This document shows positions 2-8,926 of a stretch of DNA of 12,276 bases, one piece after another (within the stretch, counting starts at the first letter, position 1; every line of letters begins with the position of its first letter). The translations under genes were made by a program, and so were the position numbers. The notes below the pieces were generated by a model. That model searched no databases. It saw only the letters and a program-made list of their open reading frames with translations, and was not told the DNA's origin. This stretch comes from Vulcanimicrobiota bacterium (GTDB taxonomy: Bacteria; Vulcanimicrobiota; Vulcanimicrobiia; Vulcanimicrobiales; Vulcanimicrobiaceae): positions 8,004-20,279 of the forward strand of contig PKZK01000252.1 in assembly GCA_003133025.1 (NCBI GenBank), written 5' to 3'.

Positions 2-652
2 GGGCAGCTTGGCCCAATTCTGCGGTTGGCTCATTTGATCCATCAGCGCCTTGAGCACCGTCTGTTGACGGCGCACGCGGCCCCAGTCGGATTCGACGTC
101 GTGGCGATAGCGCACGTAGCCGAGCACTTGGCCGCCGGTGAGATACTGCTCGCCCTTCTTGAGGTGGATGTGCAGGTCGCCGTAGTTGTCGTCGTAGTCC
201 ATGTCGTGCTCGACGTTGACGTTCATGCCGCCCATCGCGTCGACCAACTGTTTGGCGCCGTCGGGCTGCACGGCGAGCGTCGCGTCGACGTGCACGCCGG
301 TCAGCGCGGTCACCACCTTCGCGGTCGTGGCCGGGCCGCCGAAGCCGATCGCCGAGTTGATCTTCTGATGCCCGTGTCCCGGGATCGCAACCCAGGTGTC
401 GCGCGGGATCGAGACGAGCGTGGCCAAGCGGCGGTCGATGTCCAGATGCGCCAGGATCAGCGTATCCGAGTTGCCTTCGTCGGCCTGATAGCCCAGCAGC
501 AGCACGTTGAGCCGATGCGAGTGAAAGGCGCTGTCGGCGCTGCGCACGGCGATCGACTGTTGCACGCCGCCGCGAATCGCCGGAACGGCAAACGCGGCAG
601 CGACGACGACGGCGCACGCGACGAGCGCGCCGACGATGAGTTTTCGGTTCAT
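2..652 (-). CDS. LCP (LytR-CpsA-Psr) family protein, putative cell-envelope glycopolymer transferase; 3' end runs off the window
   Basis: Absent from the ORF track (no stop in the window); translated by hand from ATG at 652: MNRKLIVGALVACAVVVAAAFAVPAI (N-terminal anchor)...NVLLLGYQADEGNSDTLILAHLD...LVSIPRDTWVAIPGHGHQKINSA...LVDAMGGMNVNV...GYVRYRHDVESDWGRVRRQQ. SIPRDT, KINSA, VRxRH and DxGRxxRQQ are LCP hallmarks. GAGGA SD lies just upstream. Confidence 0.93.
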   Translation of the reverse strand, partial: MNRKLIVGALVACAVVVAAAFAVPAIRGGVQQSIAVRSADSAFHSHRLNVLLLGYQADEGNSDTLILAHLDIDRRLATLVSIPRDTWVAIPGHGHQKINSAIGFGGPATTAKVVTALTGVHVDATLAVQPDGAKQLVDAMGGMNVNVEHDMDYDDNYGDLHIHLKKGEQYLTGGQVLGYVRYRHDVESDWGRVRRQQTVLKALMDQMSQPQNWAKLP

Positions 653-655
653 GGA

Positions 656-735
656 TTCCTCGAGGGGAGAGCGCGTTCGAGCGCTTCCCGCGCGTTACGT
701 TACGAAGGGAACGCGGCGAGGAAGGGCGGCGCGCG
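656..735 (-). promoter_or_regulatory. Putative translational attenuator: RAPP arrest codons, anti-SD/SD stem and two internal hairpins upstream of the LCP start
   Basis: On the mRNA (minus strand), RAPP codons 735-724 are followed at once by UUCCUCG (723-717), the exact complement of CGAGGAA (662-656), which contains the LCP SD. Enclosed hairpins: CGCGUU/AACGCG (715-710 with 696-691) and GGGAAGCGC/GCGCUCUCCC (689-681 with 674-665). Confidence 0.68.
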
Positions 736-1323
736 TTTGCCGCCGCGCGCTGCGAGCGGATGGGGACGCGCCGCGTGCGCTACGGCAAAGTGCAGCCGTT
801 GGCTGCGCACGCGCGCGAATGCGCGACGCACGAAGATCGCGCGGATCAAGAGCGCCGCGCCGGCGGCGGTGCGCGTGGCCGCATCGAGCGCGCGCGTGAG
901 CGCACAGACGGTCAGGATGCAGGCGCCGCCGTGCAGCGCCAAGGCGACGCCTACGGGCGCGCCGAGCCAGAGCGCGCCGCCCAGCGGATGCCCCGCGACG
1001 GCGATTTGCTCGAGCGTTTCCATGGCGAAGAGCGCGCCGAGCTGCGCCCCGAAGATCGCGGGAAACATCGGCACGAGGCGCAACCGCGCGAACGGCGCCC
1101 GGGGGCGGGTGACGAGGGCGCGCGTGCGCAGAAACACGTAGAGCGCCGCGAGCACCAGGGCACCGGCGAGCGCGGGCAGCACGTCGAGGCTGCTGTGGTC
1201 GGTGTAGTTTCCGCGCCCGAAGAGGCCGGCGTTGGAGGCCGCTTCGACCAAGGGGTCGGCAAGCGCGGCGGCCGAAATGGCCGCGACGGCGCCGAACAAC
1301 CCGCGAAAACCGCTCCGAAGCAT
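700..1323 (-). CDS. Multi-pass membrane protein with C-terminal RAPP motif (candidate ribosome-arrest leader)
   Basis: 207-aa ORF with about 4-5 hydrophobic segments and a polar YTDHSSLD loop, ending ...HPLAARGGKRAPPFLAAFPS*. Co-oriented with the LCP gene and 47 nt upstream of it. The start codon is less certain because GGAG lies 14 nt upstream. Confidence 0.78.
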   Translation of the reverse strand: MLRSGFRGLFGAVAAISAAALADPLVEAASNAGLFGRGNYTDHSSLDVLPALAGALVLAALYVFLRTRALVTRPRAPFARLRLVPMFPAIFGAQLGALFAMETLEQIAVAGHPLGGALWLGAPVGVALALHGGACILTVCALTRALDAATRTAAGAALLIRAIFVRRAFARVRSQRLHFAVAHAARPHPLAARGGKRAPPFLAAFPS

Positions 1324-1514: not shown

Positions 1515-1862
1515 ATGCGAAAAATCACGCAATTCATCCTCGCGTTCGCGATCGCGACACTCGGAATCGCTCCGGCCGTTGCGGACACCGTCGGCAGCGC
1601 GAATTTCTCCGGCATCGTCAACCACGTCTCGGGGAACAACATCAAGGTGACCAACCCGAAGACCAACCAGACGTTGAGCTTCCTGATCGTGCCGAAGTTC
1701 GATCAGGTCTTTTCCGCCGACGGCAAGACCACGTATCAGATGGGCGCGATCAAGGCCGGCCAGTACGTCAAAGTCTACTACGATCAGAAGTTCCTCGGCC
1801 AGCGCCACGCCGATCGCATCCTGTTGCTCACCCAGGGCAATCACGTCATGGGCAAACAGTAA
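1515..1862 (+). CDS. Small secreted beta-rich hypothetical protein (possible OB-like fold)
   Basis: ATG at 1515 after AAAGGGA. MRKITQFILAFAIATLGIAPAVA-D is a typical Sec signal peptide with an AxA cleavage site. The mature part has alternating beta-strand patterns (GIVNHVSGNNIKVTN; IKAGQYVKVYY). Strong GC3 codon bias. Confidence 0.82.
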   Translation: MRKITQFILAFAIATLGIAPAVADTVGSANFSGIVNHVSGNNIKVTNPKTNQTLSFLIVPKFDQVFSADGKTTYQMGAIKAGQYVKVYYDQKFLGQRHADRILLLTQGNHVMGKQ

Positions 1863-3859: not shown

Positions 3860-4337
3860 CGATCCCGACCGAGGTCGAGAGGTTGAGGCTGCGCACCGCG
3901 TCCTCGCGCATCGGAATGCGCAGCGTGCGCTCCGGATAGGCCTCGAGCAATGCGCCGGGCAACCCCGCCGTCTCCTTGCCGAAGAGCAACGCGTCGCCGC
4001 GAGCGAAGGCGGCGCCGGCATACTTCTGTCTGCCGCGCGTGCTCGCAAGCCAGAGCCGCTCCGCGGGGAAATGCGTCAGAAACGCCTCGAGCGAGGCGTG
4101 CACCGTCACGTCGAGCGCGTGCCAGTAATCCAAGCCCGCGCGCTTGAGTTCGCGATCGTCGATCGAGAAGCCGAGCGGTTCCACCAGATGCAGCGCGCAG
4201 CCGGTGGCGGCGCAGAGCCGCGCGACGTTGCCCGCGTTGGGCGGGATCTGCGGTTCGACCAGCACGACGTGCAGCGGTGCGTCCGTCGCGATGTCGTCGC
4301 GCAACCGGTCGCGTGGGTTCGCGGGCCTTTCGCTCAT
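3813..4337 (-). CDS. trmL: tRNA (cytidine/uridine(34)-2'-O)-methyltransferase, SPOUT family
   Basis: HVVLVEPQIPPNAGNVARLCAATG, LHLVEPLGF, LKRAGLDYW, LLFGKETAGLP, RIPM...RSLNLS. ATG at 4337 overlaps the upstream TGA (ATGA). Confidence 0.95.
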   Translation of the reverse strand: MSERPANPRDRLRDDIATDAPLHVVLVEPQIPPNAGNVARLCAATGCALHLVEPLGFSIDDRELKRAGLDYWHALDVTVHASLEAFLTHFPAERLWLASTRGRQKYAGAAFARGDALLFGKETAGLPGALLEAYPERTLRIPMREDAVRSLNLSTSVGIVTYAALARLGFPGLR

Positions 4338-5224
4338 TGGTTGGCGAGCTCGAGCAGGTGCGCGGCGCGTTCGCTCGGCGCGATCAGATAGGCGACGCCG
4401 CCATGCCCGAGCCAGGCACGTTCGAACGCGCCGGCCGGGTATGCGCCGCGCACGTCGCGCCCCGCGGGATCGTTGACCAGCACCGTCCCGTCGGCGCCGA
4501 GGCCGCGCACGACCAGCAGATGCCCCGCGCTCGCGGGCAACGGCGCGCCGGGCAACGCGCCCTCTGGCCACGCGATCGAGACGGCGAGCGGAATGCCCGC
4601 CGCGAGAAACTGCAGCGCGTGGCCGAGACCGCGCAGATACGCGGTTGCGGCCGCAAAGCCCAGCGCGCCCGCAAACGCGGTGTTGAACGCCCAATTACCC
4701 GCGCCGCCGTAGGCCGTGTCGTACACCGCCGCCGCAACGGCCGGCACTGCAAGCGGACGGCCCCAATAGGCCAGCAGCATTGCGAGCGAAGCCGGCGAGC
4801 ACCAGCCGCGTTCGTGCTCGTGACCCGGCGGATACTGCGAATAGGCGGGCACGTCGAGTTCGACCGGCCGAGCGTTTACCGTCGCGTCATCGCCGCCGCC
4901 GGGTTGCGTCGGCGTCGCGATCCACAGCGCGTCGAGCGCGACCTCGCTGCGCACGTGCAGCGTCCTCAGCGGCGGCGTCGCGAGCGCCGTGTCGACGGCG
5001 AGTTCGAGGCCGCCCGCGCACCCGTACTGCGAGCTGCGCTCGCCTTCGCTCCACCGTACGAAGGCCAGCCACGGCGAACGCGAGCCGTCGGGAAAACTCG
5101 CCGCGAGTTCGATGCTGCCTCGCGGCGCCCTCGCGTTCCAGGAGACGAGGGCCCGCGTTGCTTCGTGCGCGAGTGCGACGTCCGCTTCGAGCGGCGGCGC
5201 CTCGAGACGGATCAGATCTGCCAC
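4334..5224 (-). CDS. Peptidase C39-like (papain-fold cysteine peptidase) with an N-terminal beta domain, no signal peptide
   Basis: LDVPAYSQ (oxyanion Gln), WCSPASLAMLLAYWG (Cys), AGNWAFNTAFAG, GHLLVVRG (His), VLVNDPA (Asp), FERAWLG. The likely GTG start at 5224 (or 5230) overlaps the end of the SBP gene; the ORF-track extension to 5815 overlaps that gene and looks spurious. Confidence 0.85.
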   Translation of the reverse strand: MADLIRLEAPPLEADVALAHEATRALVSWNARAPRGSIELAASFPDGSRSPWLAFVRWSEGERSSQYGCAGGLELAVDTALATPPLRTLHVRSEVALDALWIATPTQPGGGDDATVNARPVELDVPAYSQYPPGHEHERGWCSPASLAMLLAYWGRPLAVPAVAAAVYDTAYGGAGNWAFNTAFAGALGFAAATAYLRGLGHALQFLAAGIPLAVSIAWPEGALPGAPLPASAGHLLVVRGLGADGTVLVNDPAGRDVRGAYPAGAFERAWLGHGGVAYLIAPSERAAHLLELANQ

Positions 5225-6834
5225 TCCCACGAATTCCAGTTGTCGGTGATGTATTCGGCGGGCTCGTAGTTGCGCAGGTCGGCGTTGTAGGCCGCGAGCG
5301 TACGCTCCCAATAGAAGAAGACGGTGGGCACGAGTTCGTGAATGCGCGTCTCCTCGCGCTGATAGAGCGCCTTGCGCTTCGCGCGATCGAAGGTGCGCAG
5401 CGCGGCGTCGGAGAGCGCGGTAATCTCGGGATCGCGCAGGAACGAGGTGTTCGCGCCCTTGGGCGGCACGAAGTCGCCGCTCCAACTGCCTTGGTTGTCG
5501 GGGTCGGGTCCGTTGGTGTCGATCGACCACTCGAGGTCGTAGGTGCCCGAATAGAGCGGGCCCGTTTGCGCGAACAGAAAACTCGCCGGATAATTCTTGA
5601 TCGTCAGCGCGAGGCCGAGCCCGCGCAGTTGCTGTTGCATCTGCACCTCGGCCTCTTCGTTGCCGGGTTTGTGCGTTGCGGAGATCGTAAGCCCGAGCGG
5701 CGCGCCGGCCTTGCGGCGCACGCCGTCGGGCCCGGGCGTCCAGCCCGCGGCGTCGAGCAGGCGTTTCGCGCCGGCCGGATCGTACGGATAGAAGGGCACG
5801 TGGGGCGCGGCCCACGAGTCGGGCGGGATGTCGCTCGTGGAGCGCAGGTTGTACCCGTGGTAGACCGTCGCGTTGAGCCTATTCCAATCGATGCCTTCGG
5901 CGATGGCCAGGCGCACGCGCGCGTCGCTCAACCCGGGGCGCGAACAGTTGATGGCCAAGCGCCGCCAGTTGGCGATCAAGTGCGTCACCTCGTGCAAGCC
6001 CGCGATCTGGTGCAGGCGCGGCACCAGCCGTTCGTCGACGTTGGCGATCACGTCGATGTCGTGCGTGGCCAATTCCGAGAAGAGCGAGTCGGGATCGGGC
6101 ACGATCTTGATGCTCAAGCGCTGAAGTTTCGGCGCGCCGCGCCAGTACGCCGGGTTGGGCTCGAACTCGAAGCCCGAGCCGTGATTCCAGGTCTTGAGGA
6201 CGAACGGTCCGCTCGAGAGCGGGTGCGCGTTGAAATCGGCGCGGTTGAGATCGGGCAGTTTGCCCAGCAGGTGCTCGGGCAGCGGCGGATACGCGCTGCC
6301 GCCGCCGCCGCCGAAGATGCCCAGCACGTTGGCGTTGGGCCGTTTGAGCCGCACGACCGCGGTGTAATCGTCGGGCACGTCGATGCGCTCGACGTCGTCC
6401 CAGCCGTACAGCGCCTTGGTGGCATTGCGCCTGTCGACGACCGCGCGCCAGGTGAAGCGCAGGTCGCGTGCGGTCAGCGGCGCGCCGTCGGCCCAGCGCA
6501 CGCCGTGGCGCCAATGCAGCACGATCGTTTTGGAATCCTTGGAGATGCCGCCGTTGGCGTAGGTCGGCACCTCGGTCGCGAGTTCGGGCACGAACTCGCC
6601 GTGCGGATCGTAGCGGAAGACGGGCGCGAAGATCAGCGCGTCGATCTGATCGGTCGCGTCGGTGTGCGCGAACATCGGGTTGAGGTTGTCGGGTTCGTCG
6701 CTCATGCCGATGCGCAGGTGGCCCGGAACCGTCCACGCATTGCGTTCGTCCGCGGTGCGCGCGACGGGAGCGGTCGAAGCGCACGCCGTCGCCGCGAAAC
6801 TCACCAGCAGCGCGAGCAGCGCCGCGCGTCTCAT
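5212..6834 (-). CDS. ABC transporter substrate-binding lipoprotein, family 5 (OppA/DppA/MppA-like)
   Basis: Lipoprotein signal MRRAALLALLVSFAATA-C; EPDNLNP, PELATEVPT, VRWADGAPLTARDLRFTW, SGPF, DARVRLAIAEGID. ATG at 6834 overlaps the upstream TGA (ATGA). Confidence 0.94.
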   Translation of the reverse strand: MRRAALLALLVSFAATACASTAPVARTADERNAWTVPGHLRIGMSDEPDNLNPMFAHTDATDQIDALIFAPVFRYDPHGEFVPELATEVPTYANGGISKDSKTIVLHWRHGVRWADGAPLTARDLRFTWRAVVDRRNATKALYGWDDVERIDVPDDYTAVVRLKRPNANVLGIFGGGGGSAYPPLPEHLLGKLPDLNRADFNAHPLSSGPFVLKTWNHGSGFEFEPNPAYWRGAPKLQRLSIKIVPDPDSLFSELATHDIDVIANVDERLVPRLHQIAGLHEVTHLIANWRRLAINCSRPGLSDARVRLAIAEGIDWNRLNATVYHGYNLRSTSDIPPDSWAAPHVPFYPYDPAGAKRLLDAAGWTPGPDGVRRKAGAPLGLTISATHKPGNEEAEVQMQQQLRGLGLALTIKNYPASFLFAQTGPLYSGTYDLEWSIDTNGPDPDNQGSWSGDFVPPKGANTSFLRDPEITALSDAALRTFDRAKRKALYQREETRIHELVPTVFFYWERTLAAYNADLRNYEPAEYITDNWNSWEWQI

Positions 6835-7910
6835 CGGCGCAGCGCCGGTTGCGCGAGCGGGGCGCGTTTGCGCGCGAACGCGGGCGCCATCGCCGCGTAG
6901 AGTTCGTCGGGTCCGAAACGCACCACGTCGTCGGCGGGCAGGCCGGTCTCGATGCGCGCGCGTTCGATCTCCTCGCGCGCCGTCGCGTCGTCGAGTCCGG
7001 CGGTGTTGAGCGCGATGCCCGCAACGAGCGCCGGCTTCACGCCCGCGCACAGCGCTTCGTACGTGCGAATCGCCGTGCGGTACGAAAGCAGCGGCGTGTT
7101 CAAGCCGTCGACGGCGGTGCGCGTGGGCCGGTGCACGAGCACGAGCGCGTCGGGCGCCGCGCCGAACAACAGCGCGAGCGTGACCGGCGCGTAGGCCGGA
7201 TTGTTGATGCCGCCCTGACCCTCGACGAAGAGTACGTCGGCGCCGGGAGCGTGTTCCACGACGAGCCGCTCCGCGGCGCCCGTCGCGAAGTCGGCGATGA
7301 CGCGGTCGATCGCGATGCCGCTGCCGGCGATCATGATGCCCGTCTGACCGGTCGCGACGAAGCGCGCGTTCTCGCCGTGGATCAACGCCGAGCGCGTCAA
7401 CTCGAGCGCGGCCGTCATCTTGCCCACCGCGCAATCGGTGCCCACGAGCAAGACGACCCGCGCCTCGACGCCGTACGCTTCGCCCGAGAAGAGCGGCACT
7501 TCGGGCGGTAGACGCACGTCGCGGATCGTGCCGCCGCCGCGCGCGGCGGCCTGGGCGAACTGCGCATCCTCGCCGAGAATCTGGTGTAGTCCGCTCACCA
7601 CCTCCAGCCCAGCCTCGAGTGCCGCGGCGATCGTCGCGCGCCAAGCCCGCGGGAGCGCGCCTCCGGGCGGCGCGACGCCGACGAGCAGCGCCGTCGGCGC
7701 CAGAGGCAGCGCTGCGTCGAAACCGGCCACGATCGGCGCGTCCGAGTTGAGCGTGGGCACGACGTCGCGCACGCGCTTGCCGGCGTGCGTCGCGTCGATG
7801 ACGGCCACCACGTCGTCGTTACCGTACGCGATCACGCCGTGCGCCGTCTTCGCGGAGCGGTCCGCAAACTCGCCGTCGGCGAGGATGACGTAGCGCCGCC
7901 GGCCGCTCAC
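6831..7910 (-). CDS. DUF1611 family protein (DgcN-like putative D-glutamate N-acetyltransferase; P-loop-like fold)
   Basis: AKTAHGVI, VGVAPPGGALP, VVSGLH, VGTDCAVGKMT, FVATGQTGIMI, DFATGAAE, VEGQG, LLFGAAPDALVLVH are DUF1611 motifs. GTG at 7910 overlaps the epimerase TGA (GTGA). Confidence 0.9.
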   Translation of the reverse strand: MSGRRRYVILADGEFADRSAKTAHGVIAYGNDDVVAVIDATHAGKRVRDVVPTLNSDAPIVAGFDAALPLAPTALLVGVAPPGGALPRAWRATIAAALEAGLEVVSGLHQILGEDAQFAQAAARGGGTIRDVRLPPEVPLFSGEAYGVEARVVLLVGTDCAVGKMTAALELTRSALIHGENARFVATGQTGIMIAGSGIAIDRVIADFATGAAERLVVEHAPGADVLFVEGQGGINNPAYAPVTLALLFGAAPDALVLVHRPTRTAVDGLNTPLLSYRTAIRTYEALCAGVKPALVAGIALNTAGLDDATAREEIERARIETGLPADDVVRFGPDELYAAMAPAFARKRAPLAQPALRR

Positions 7911-8926
7911 GCCGCGGCGCGCTCGCGCACGCCGAGGCCCGGCCGGTCGCTGAGGATCAGCTTGCCGTCGGCATACGTTACGCCGCTGAATGGATCGTCG
8001 GCGGTCAAGAACGGACCGTCGAGATCGGCCCAATCGACCGCCGGCGAGATGTGCGCCGCGGCGGTGGTCAGCACCGCGCTCTCGACCATGCAGCCGAGCA
8101 TGATCTTCAGGCCGAGCGCGCGCGCCGTGCAGATCATGGAAATCGCGCCGCGCAGGCCGCCGCACTTGACCAGCTTGATGTTGATGCCGTCGACGCAGCC
8201 TTGCAGCGCGGGCAGATCGCGCGAATCGCGCGCGTCTTCGTCGGCGACCAGCGGCACGGACGTGCGTTCGCGAATCCAGCGCAGCCGCTCGGGCGCTCCG
8301 GCCGGGATCGGCTGTTCGCAGAATTCGAGGTCGCAGCGTTCGAGTTCGCCGAGCACCGCGACCGCGCGTTCGGGCGTCCAGGCTTCGTTGGCGTCGACGC
8401 GCAACGCGCCCGTGTAGCGTGCGCGCATCGCGCGGATCAGTTCCACGTCGTCGGCCGTGCCGAGCTTGACCTTGATCACCGGGTGCGTGCGGATCTCGTC
8501 GAGTTTGGCCAGCATCCGCTCGGGCGTATCGATGCCCACCGTAAACGAGGTGACCGGCGTGCGCGCCGGGTCGAAGCCGCAGATCTGCCAAAGTGGACGG
8601 TCGAGGTCTTTGCCGATCCAATCGTAGAGCGCCACGTCGAGCGCGCAGCGGGCTGCGGGCGGCAGGCCGGTCAGCAATCGTGCGACCGCGTACGGATCGT
8701 CGCCCAGCGGGTGCGCGCGCAGCGCCGCGGCCACCGATTCGACGCTCTCGGCGTATCGCGCGCTCGGCGCGGCTTCACCCAGGCCCTCGTGCTCGCCGTG
8801 CTGCAGCCGGACGATCAGCGTGTGTGCGTCGGTCTCGGAACCGCGCGCGATCGTAAAGGTGTGAACGAGCGGCAGCCGGAGTTCGTCGAGCGACAAATGC
8901 ACCCGCGGCGTCTTACGCGATAGCAC
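7907..8926 (-). CDS. Enolase-superfamily dipeptide epimerase (L-Ala-D/L-Glu epimerase / DgcA-like racemase)
   Basis: FTIARGS (specificity Arg), GLGEAAP, KVK catalytic Lys, metal ligands in DANE, EQP and ADE, NIKLVKCGG second Lys, GCMVES, and the DLDG (DxD) dipeptide-epimerase motif. GTG 8926 has AGGAG upstream; GTG 8902 is an alternative start. Confidence 0.93.
   Translation of the reverse strand: MLSRKTPRVHLSLDELRLPLVHTFTIARGSETDAHTLIVRLQHGEHEGLGEAAPSARYAESVESVAAALRAHPLGDDPYAVARLLTGLPPAARCALDVALYDWIGKDLDRPLWQICGFDPARTPVTSFTVGIDTPERMLAKLDEIRTHPVIKVKLGTADDVELIRAMRARYTGALRVDANEAWTPERAVAVLGELERCDLEFCEQPIPAGAPERLRWIRERTSVPLVADEDARDSRDLPALQGCVDGINIKLVKCGGLRGAISMICTARALGLKIMLGCMVESAVLTTAAAHISPAVDWADLDGPFLTADDPFSGVTYADGKLILSDRPGLGVRERAAA

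Follow-up and report, generated by a model that had tools for sequence, protein, structure and literature searches.

The leader gene and the LytR-CpsA-Psr (LCP) gene described here, at one end of a window of 12,276 nucleotides (the whole stretch of DNA that was analysed), form a real and well conserved module, very probably a RAPP arrest switch that follows the logic of SecM. The leader is a membrane protein whose C-terminus reads GGK-RAPP-FLAAFPS in the translation of the open reading frame at 700-1323 on the minus strand. As an earlier note on this DNA had stated, this frame encodes 207 residues, ends in RAPP and is followed 47 nt after its stop codon by the LCP gene, both of which were confirmed from the sequence. 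In our judgement the leader probably stalls its own ribosome and frees the ribosome-binding site of the LCP gene, stalling being the likely on-switch of LCP synthesis because a stalled ribosome would cover the strand that pairs with the Shine-Dalgarno sequence (SD), as in SecM. The idea of a RAPP arrest leader coupled to LCP, put forward in the earlier note, keeps its motif, its spacing and its partner gene, as far as these can be read from sequence, but loses the tunnel-length argument that came with it.

By analogy with ApdA, ApdP and CruR, the ribosome would stop when Pro199 (729-727) occupies its P site and Pro200 (726-724) its A site. At this stage all four helices of the leader, which end at residue 143, 57 before the stall, would already have left the ribosome and entered the membrane, and the lifetime of the stall would depend on the state of this membrane domain, transmitted through a linker of fixed length. 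The stalled ribosome would then cover 723-717, so that the SD at 662-656 opens and LCP is translated. The features concerned are collected in Table 1.

Table 1. Position and basis of the elements of the leader-LCP module in the window.
Feature	Position	Strand	Basis or description
LCP (LytR-CpsA-Psr) glycopolymer transferase gene, 5' part	2..652	minus	PF03816, E 4.7e-43; TIGR00350
LCP ribosome-binding site, predicted to be sequestered	656..662	minus	pairs with 723-717
Spacer with predicted side hairpins bringing anti-SD and SD together	663..699	minus	fold; similar multi-branch folds elsewhere
Leader gene	700..1323	minus	207 aa, four-helix membrane protein, C-terminal RAPP plus 7 residues
Anti-Shine-Dalgarno strand, 7 nt right after the last Pro codon	717..723	minus	folds, covariation
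RAPP codons, R197-P200	735-724	minus	Pro codons at 729-724
Amphipathic helix and basic linker, residues 144-196	736..894	minus	variable sequence, near-fixed length
Helix 4, ~124-143, last clear membrane helix, conserved H131	895..954	minus	hydropathy, conservation
Helix 3, ~84-108, conserved Q94, M101, E102, E105, Q106	1000..1074	minus	model, conservation
Helix 2, ~48-66, preceded by loop with D42 and LCP-clade D47	1126..1182	minus	model, conservation
Helix 1, ~residues 8-31, conserved D23 and E27	1231..1302	minus	model, family conservation

The leader family and the genes that follow it

In a domain search neither the leader nor 36 of its relatives were assigned to a Pfam or NCBIfam family. 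The named relatives belong to Vulcanimicrobiota (Eremiobacterota), and a family profile matches 70 of the 201 genomes of this phylum, all of them in three families of one class, with 346 matches among 1.84 billion representative proteins. We read 124 loci, from 43 species genomes, 80 metagenomes and the present locus, and counted the 119 C-termini closed by a stop, nine further segments that were cut or frameshifted being left out. RAPP was found in 110 of these C-termini, RGPP in seven, and CAPP and RPPP in one each; the CAPP copy (L019) is still linked to LCP. The conservation of RAPP/RGPP among homologues, which the earlier note had set as a check, therefore holds in 117/119 cases. Exactly four residues follow the motif in 87/119 C-termini while seven follow it at this locus. 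In the first homologue search RAPP lies within the last 25 residues in 50 of 52 proteins, query included, and R[AG]PP does so in 135 of the top 150 representatives, the other 15 including truncated or extended forms and RSPP or RPPP variants. These two rarer variants are among those that keep partial arrest in the mutagenesis published in PMC12992588. Within one family (f3), leaders L141-L144, L135 and L136 carry RPPP or RSPP; the f3 leaders mostly precede exported proteins with no Pfam match, two of which start with a CxxCH-like segment. By comparison, the ~1,900 likely genes of this genome contain 4 instances of RAPP and 34 of AAPP. Judged from the sequences compared, the terminal motif of the leader family is under selection.

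The LCP gene starts at 652 and runs off the window, its product being 371 aa long in a near-identical locus (L044). Like the LCP proteins MsrR, TagU and TagV, this product passes the curated PF03816 and TIGR00350 cut-offs, with the domain placed behind an N-terminal anchor. Its best solved relatives are MsrR and TagV (E ~3e-30 to 5e-30), with an alignment to MsrR over residues 46-262, and D63, R84, R181, R183 and R192 are invariant in 24 aligned copies. Members of the family transfer lipid-linked glycopolymers and bind polyprenyl pyrophosphate (PMC6381275). Unlike other LCPs, the one examined here follows an arrest-type leader, and its lineage encodes TonB-dependent receptors as well.

A check on which genes lie downstream of the homologues, also set in the earlier note, was answered with a classifier based on copies that match Pfam: in 93 of the 119 loci an LCP gene follows within 900 nt, nine have too little DNA and 17 have other genes. 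These 17, some of them assigned by eye, include three family-4 glycosyltransferases, three CsoR-type repressors, a bestrophin-like protein and a receptor-like protein, along with three LCP starts that look decayed. The gap between the leader and the downstream gene ranges from 30 to 117 nt in 51 representative loci. Since the genes upstream of the leader in the window recur in none of the 76 loci that have enough DNA, leader and LCP gene travel as a unit. Four loci (L010, L015, L112 and L153) have an intact leader followed by only an N-terminal stub of the LCP gene, which looks like deletion or replacement of the target.

A genome-wide profile search gave 98 matches; we read 40 of the top 54 and 21 of the remaining 44, in partial overlap with the 119 loci above. 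LCP follows 38/40 of the high-scoring matches and 1/21 of the lower-scoring ones; of the remaining 20 in the lower-scoring set, 13 stand before proteins that carry a carboxypeptidase-regulatory domain at the N-terminus, a TonB plug being present in two. The LCP-linked leaders group together in a quick tree (SH-aLRT 97; 40 LCP-linked and 2 others), and this clade spans three LCP subtypes. LCP subtype labels cluster on a quick leader tree (11 changes vs 35 when shuffled), a result that we do not use as an argument for co-evolution because such a tree is rough and kin share labels.

In this genome six membrane proteins end in R[AG]PP, five of which score against the family profile. Their targets are the present LCP gene, four TonB-receptor-like genes (three with TonB plug or barrel matches and one with the N-terminal domain alone) and a DJ-1/PfpI gene followed by SCO. 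Most of the five further leaders, found on contigs C51, C58, C71, C147 and C254 (loci L124-L128), have His in place of D23. Over the whole family, the same leader fold precedes receptor-like proteins with a carboxypeptidase-regulatory domain and glycosyltransferase, CsoR, DJ-1/SCO, redoxin and RND genes, and no secA, secDF or yidC was found among the downstream genes classified.

Neither a sigma-70-like promoter in 600-1900 nor a terminator between leader and LCP gene was detected, Rfam gave zero matches within the window, and a search for the leader in plasmids gave no match. Contigs from RNA runs (4 runs of 23 listed) cover a small divergent gene near 1420-2050 but neither the leader nor the LCP gene, a pattern uninformative on absence of expression. 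This divergent gene (1515-1862, plus strand) encodes a 115-aa predicted secreted protein with no Pfam match and is covered in all four runs. Further away, a run of minus-strand genes at 4337-8926 encodes a dipeptide epimerase-like enolase, a DUF1611 protein, a family-5 solute-binding protein and a C39-like peptidase, and could possibly serve peptidoglycan peptide recycling.

Membrane domain, linker and candidate signal

The AlphaFold model of the leader, built from 34 sequences, has a mean pLDDT of 87.9 and helices at residues 2-31, 48-72, 84-110 and 124-185, and family hydropathy supports four membrane segments, the last one ending near residue 143. The last clear transmembrane segment thus ends ~57 residues before P200, and we reject the claim of the earlier note that it ends one tunnel length upstream of RAPP. 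The hydrophobic segment on which this claim was based does end at V165, the end of TAAGAALLIRAIFV, 35 residues before P200, but residues 152-165 are amphipathic (family hydropathy 0.7-0.9, ~20% charged, often with several Arg) and form no conserved membrane helix. What is conserved is the spacing of the motif from helix 4, also proposed as a check: the interval between the WLGxP motif, which precedes helix 4, and the last Pro is 75-78 residues in 90/90 loci, and 74-80 in 135/150 representatives where both motifs were found, compared with 50-66 in 66/68 for the helix 2-to-3 interval. Such a fixed spacing, seen across homologous sequences, may hint at a force-released arrest.

Foldseek searches with the leader model gave no match at E <= 0.001. 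The best row of VIA-align (Z 8.7, rmsd 4.0 over 135 residues) is a helical bundle of the YbbAP/FtsX type, a score within the range of common helix arrangements, and no fold was assigned. A complex prediction with leader residues 1-170 and LCP scored 0.00, which counts neither for nor against binding.

Eight residues of the leader (E27, D42, D47, E102, E105, Q106, W119 and H131) are invariant in 40/40 LCP-linked copies. Position 47 is D in all 40 and S or G in all 12 copies of the sister group, while at position 23 His prevails in the deeper branches of the family. The putative pocket formed by such residues is not specific to LCP, D47, S44 and H112 excepted, because most of them are common to the sister group, which precedes non-LCP genes. 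As for the His-bearing DHSSLD loop singled out in the earlier note, its H43 is poorly conserved (102/213), whereas D42 (192/213) and H131 (196/213) are conserved. Given that the N-terminus, the loop at 66-83 and the tail are all basic, both termini would be inside the cell, and D23, E27, D42, D47, E102, E105, Q106 and H131 would therefore point toward the outer face. Going by helix positions, D23, E27, D42, D47, E102, E105 and H131 would form one acidic/His pocket, which would probably face outward.

A ligand held in this acidic pocket may set the lifetime of the stall, a guess that leaves room for two directions, since the ligand may release the stall (as in CruR) or deepen it (as in CutF). 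Our first choice of signal, a guess with rather less than an even chance of being right, is a divalent metal held in the acidic/His pocket, since genes for receptors, SCO, CsoR and redoxin stand behind sister leaders and LCP enzymes use Mg2+. As second choice, also a guess and clearly less probable, we name a lipid-linked wall precursor, given that LCPs bind polyprenyl pyrophosphate and that three copies of the leader precede a glycosyltransferase. Insertion or folding by Sec/YidC is a somewhat weaker candidate for the signal, and something else altogether is the least probable of the four. A broader and rather doubtful reading is that the leaders are a family of four-helix nascent-chain receptors, which would read an outer-face ligand while still bound to the ribosome and would have been re-tuned repeatedly, the LCP clade with Asp47 sensing a lipid-linked wall precursor or a metal-pyrophosphate head and the His-rich clades sensing metals for outer-membrane receptors. 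If this were true, the LCP-clade leader would be the first arrest peptide monitoring cell-wall polymer synthesis.

The alternative that survives best, which was the main idea of the earlier note and which we consider unlikely, needs no small ligand: as in MifM and ApcA, the leader would monitor membrane insertion, the pull of Sec/YidC insertion releasing the stall and poor insertion inducing LCP. The four predicted membrane helices and the fixed distance from helix 4 to the stall would suit such a monitor, and nearly all identified downstream products look exported or membrane-bound. However, no downstream Sec/YidC gene was seen, so that no feedback loop is apparent, the last clear transmembrane segment is as far as 57 residues from the stall with the amphipathic stretch 152-165 in between, and a generic insertion substrate needs no polar pocket that is strictly conserved and varies from one target clade to the next.

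Predicted pairing between the end of the leader and the LCP ribosome-binding site

When the segment 760-630 is folded, both the minimum-energy and the centroid structures pair 723-717 with 662-656 and so close a multi-branch loop, and removal of the 5' strand leaves the LCP SD open in the centroid fold. Taken by itself, this locus folds no more stably than shuffled sequences do (z -0.9). A small hairpin just 5' of or over the Arg-Ala codons (736-752 in the window, and homologous places elsewhere) is also predicted in most of the folds shown.

For covariation, 90 of the 93 LCP loci were retained (two have no R[AG]PP and one no in-frame start) and thinned to 51 under 60% identity, a set in which some LCP start codons may be mis-picked. 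When the 15 nt from -3 to +12 of the RAPP end are paired with the SD region of their own locus, the energy is -12.3 kcal/mol, compared with -8.7 for permuted partners (z -10.4, 0/2000 permutations, 51 loci), the z-scores being overstated because the loci are kin. The own SD beats that of the nearest relative in 36/51 loci, and in 28/35 under 50% identity. In the 51 loci, windows shifted to -120 to -18 or to +9 and +12 relative to the end of RAPP gave no pairing signal, and 156 ordinary gene pairs taken from this genome gave none either (z -0.5). Unbroken helices of at least 8 pairs occur in 15/51 own pairs vs 6% of foreign pairs, while an unbroken 6-pair helix is missing in 14/51 loci. On these comparisons, which are of sequences throughout, the post-RAPP codons covary with the LCP ribosome-binding site.

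A simulated ribosome footprint at RAPP raises the accessibility of the SD from a median of 0.03 to 0.27 over the 51 loci, compared with medians of 0.07 and 0.03 for footprints placed 10 or 20 codons upstream. At this locus the probability that the SD core is unpaired goes from 0.01 when the RNA is free to 0.28 with the footprint at RAPP. The predicted opening is modest, accessibility exceeding 0.5 in 5/51 loci and gaining more than 0.2 in 23/51.

Elsewhere in the family the pairing varies with the locus. In this genome the paralogues on C71 and C147 have no anti-SD pairing and that on C254 has little. Close relatives of the leader that precede a family-4 glycosyltransferase or a bestrophin-like or unassigned protein (L053:3130, L054:1580, L055:1131, L046:1341 and L005:5573) keep the anti-SD/SD pairing, which suggests that the cassette has been reused. 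RGPP-type leaders similar to the LCP clade (L104:3154, L113:3127 and L123:3121) precede a CsoR/RcnR metal-sensing repressor with the SD stem still predicted; each would be an arrest leader controlling a transcription factor.

The same stretch of DNA could also be read through transcription, as for CruR (PMC9426467), the stalled ribosome mainly blocking Rho-dependent termination between the two genes and the stem being secondary. We find this quite improbable: C exceeds G around the leader end in 51/51 loci at -60 (by +12.8 points on average, to which the Pro codons contribute) and Rho is present in 70/81 genomes of the class (two of them, G128 and G202, unpublished), but the position-specific covariation with the SD would be left unexplained, and Rho was not found in this genome (80% complete) or in G063 (96% complete), which carries an LCP-linked leader. 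Altogether Rho was not found in 11/81 genomes of the class, for example G045 (a single contig), G063 and G105, hence some genera may have lost it.

Less probable still is a role of the leader as a stable membrane accessory to the LCP enzyme, with the pause serving co-translational assembly or coupling in a fixed ratio rather than sensing. The well-folded model, the conserved core and the link of one clade to LCP across three subtypes agree with such a role, and a ribosome terminating 4-7 codons after RAPP would also briefly melt the stem; against it, the same fold stands before unrelated genes and no such leader precedes the second LCP gene of this genome. Finally, a chance motif in an ordinary membrane protein is very improbable: the GC-rich DNA of this genome does contain 76 open frames that end in R[AG]PP, but conservation, spacing and covariation largely refute it, and 6/6 of those with membrane segments precede a co-oriented gene with an SD vs 2/8 for A[AG]PP.

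Relation to known arrest leaders

The preferred reading, an arrest leader that opens the LCP ribosome-binding site, falls within a class described by Fujiwara et al. 2025, who reported RAPP/RGPP leaders before diverse genes and demonstrated arrest for seven such leaders of S. lividans, four of them with four transmembrane segments (PMC12992588). That study also states that RAPP alone is insufficient for arrest, and its survey ends by asking whether arrest regulates downstream genes other than those of Sec, by what mechanism, and what pulls the chain. The suggestion of the earlier note that the system may be undescribed is therefore narrowed, RAPP leaders before non-Sec genes, four-transmembrane ones included, being already shown to arrest there, while no LCP target was found in print. 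The 30 enriched RAPP target classes of PMC12992588 do not include LCP; LCP, LytR and Eremiobacter do not occur in its main text; and LCP has 0 matches in the 10 supplements searched, so that a case listed elsewhere may have been missed. A literature search found no paper linking an arrest peptide to LCP.

Like the leaders of that study, the one described here is shorter than 300 aa, is a membrane protein with a C-terminal RAPP/RGPP and a co-oriented downstream gene, and has conserved candidate ligand residues in a four-helix domain; as in the published RAPP classes, paralogues precede TonB-receptor-like, SCO-linked and redoxin genes. Unlike those leaders, however, its pocket is mainly acidic and not Cys/His, and where the mechanism was left open in the material published there, the covarying SD stem here points to one. 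Atlas feature scores place the leader at 0.96 to two clusters whose commonest phylum is Actinomycetota, and residues 1-165 at 0.76 versus named clusters; the comparison with actinobacterial four-transmembrane leaders of the SLIV_18480 type was made by such feature scores. Homology to actinobacterial YcnI-linked leaders is possible, as judged by eye from one supplement row of PMC12992588, and no YcnI was found in this genome.

Like SecM, MifM, VemP and the Apd/Apc peptides, the leader would arrest near its C-terminus, and it shares with SecM-type systems a stem, here predicted by computation, that hides the SD of the next gene and would be opened by a stalled ribosome (PMC10987492). It differs from them in its target, a wall glycopolymer transferase and not localization machinery, LCP standing where SecM-type leaders have secA, secDF or yidC, and in its N-terminal part, a conserved four-helix domain and not a signal sequence or single anchor. 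It may be ligand-responsive as are CruR of Bordetella and CutF of Rhodobacter, the stalling of the latter being reported to melt a stem over the ribosome-binding site of the next gene. Unlike these DUF2946 leaders, it gives no DUF2946 match at E <= 1, has no CXXC either in its own sequence or in the conserved columns of the family, and has four helices, and CruR acts through Rho.

In light of the published material covered, these leaders make up a sensor family that has not been described and whose target class has not been reported, and they fall within a leader class published in 2025 (PMC12992588). The family provides comparative evidence for a mechanism, in the form of a covarying SD stem under the stall site, and brings in a target class that the published enriched list lacks, the cell-wall LCP transferase. 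Because pocket residues change with the target across a natural series of paralogues, the question of the signal is directly testable by domain swaps and, should the signal be a wall precursor, the leader would represent a new way of sensing envelope synthesis.
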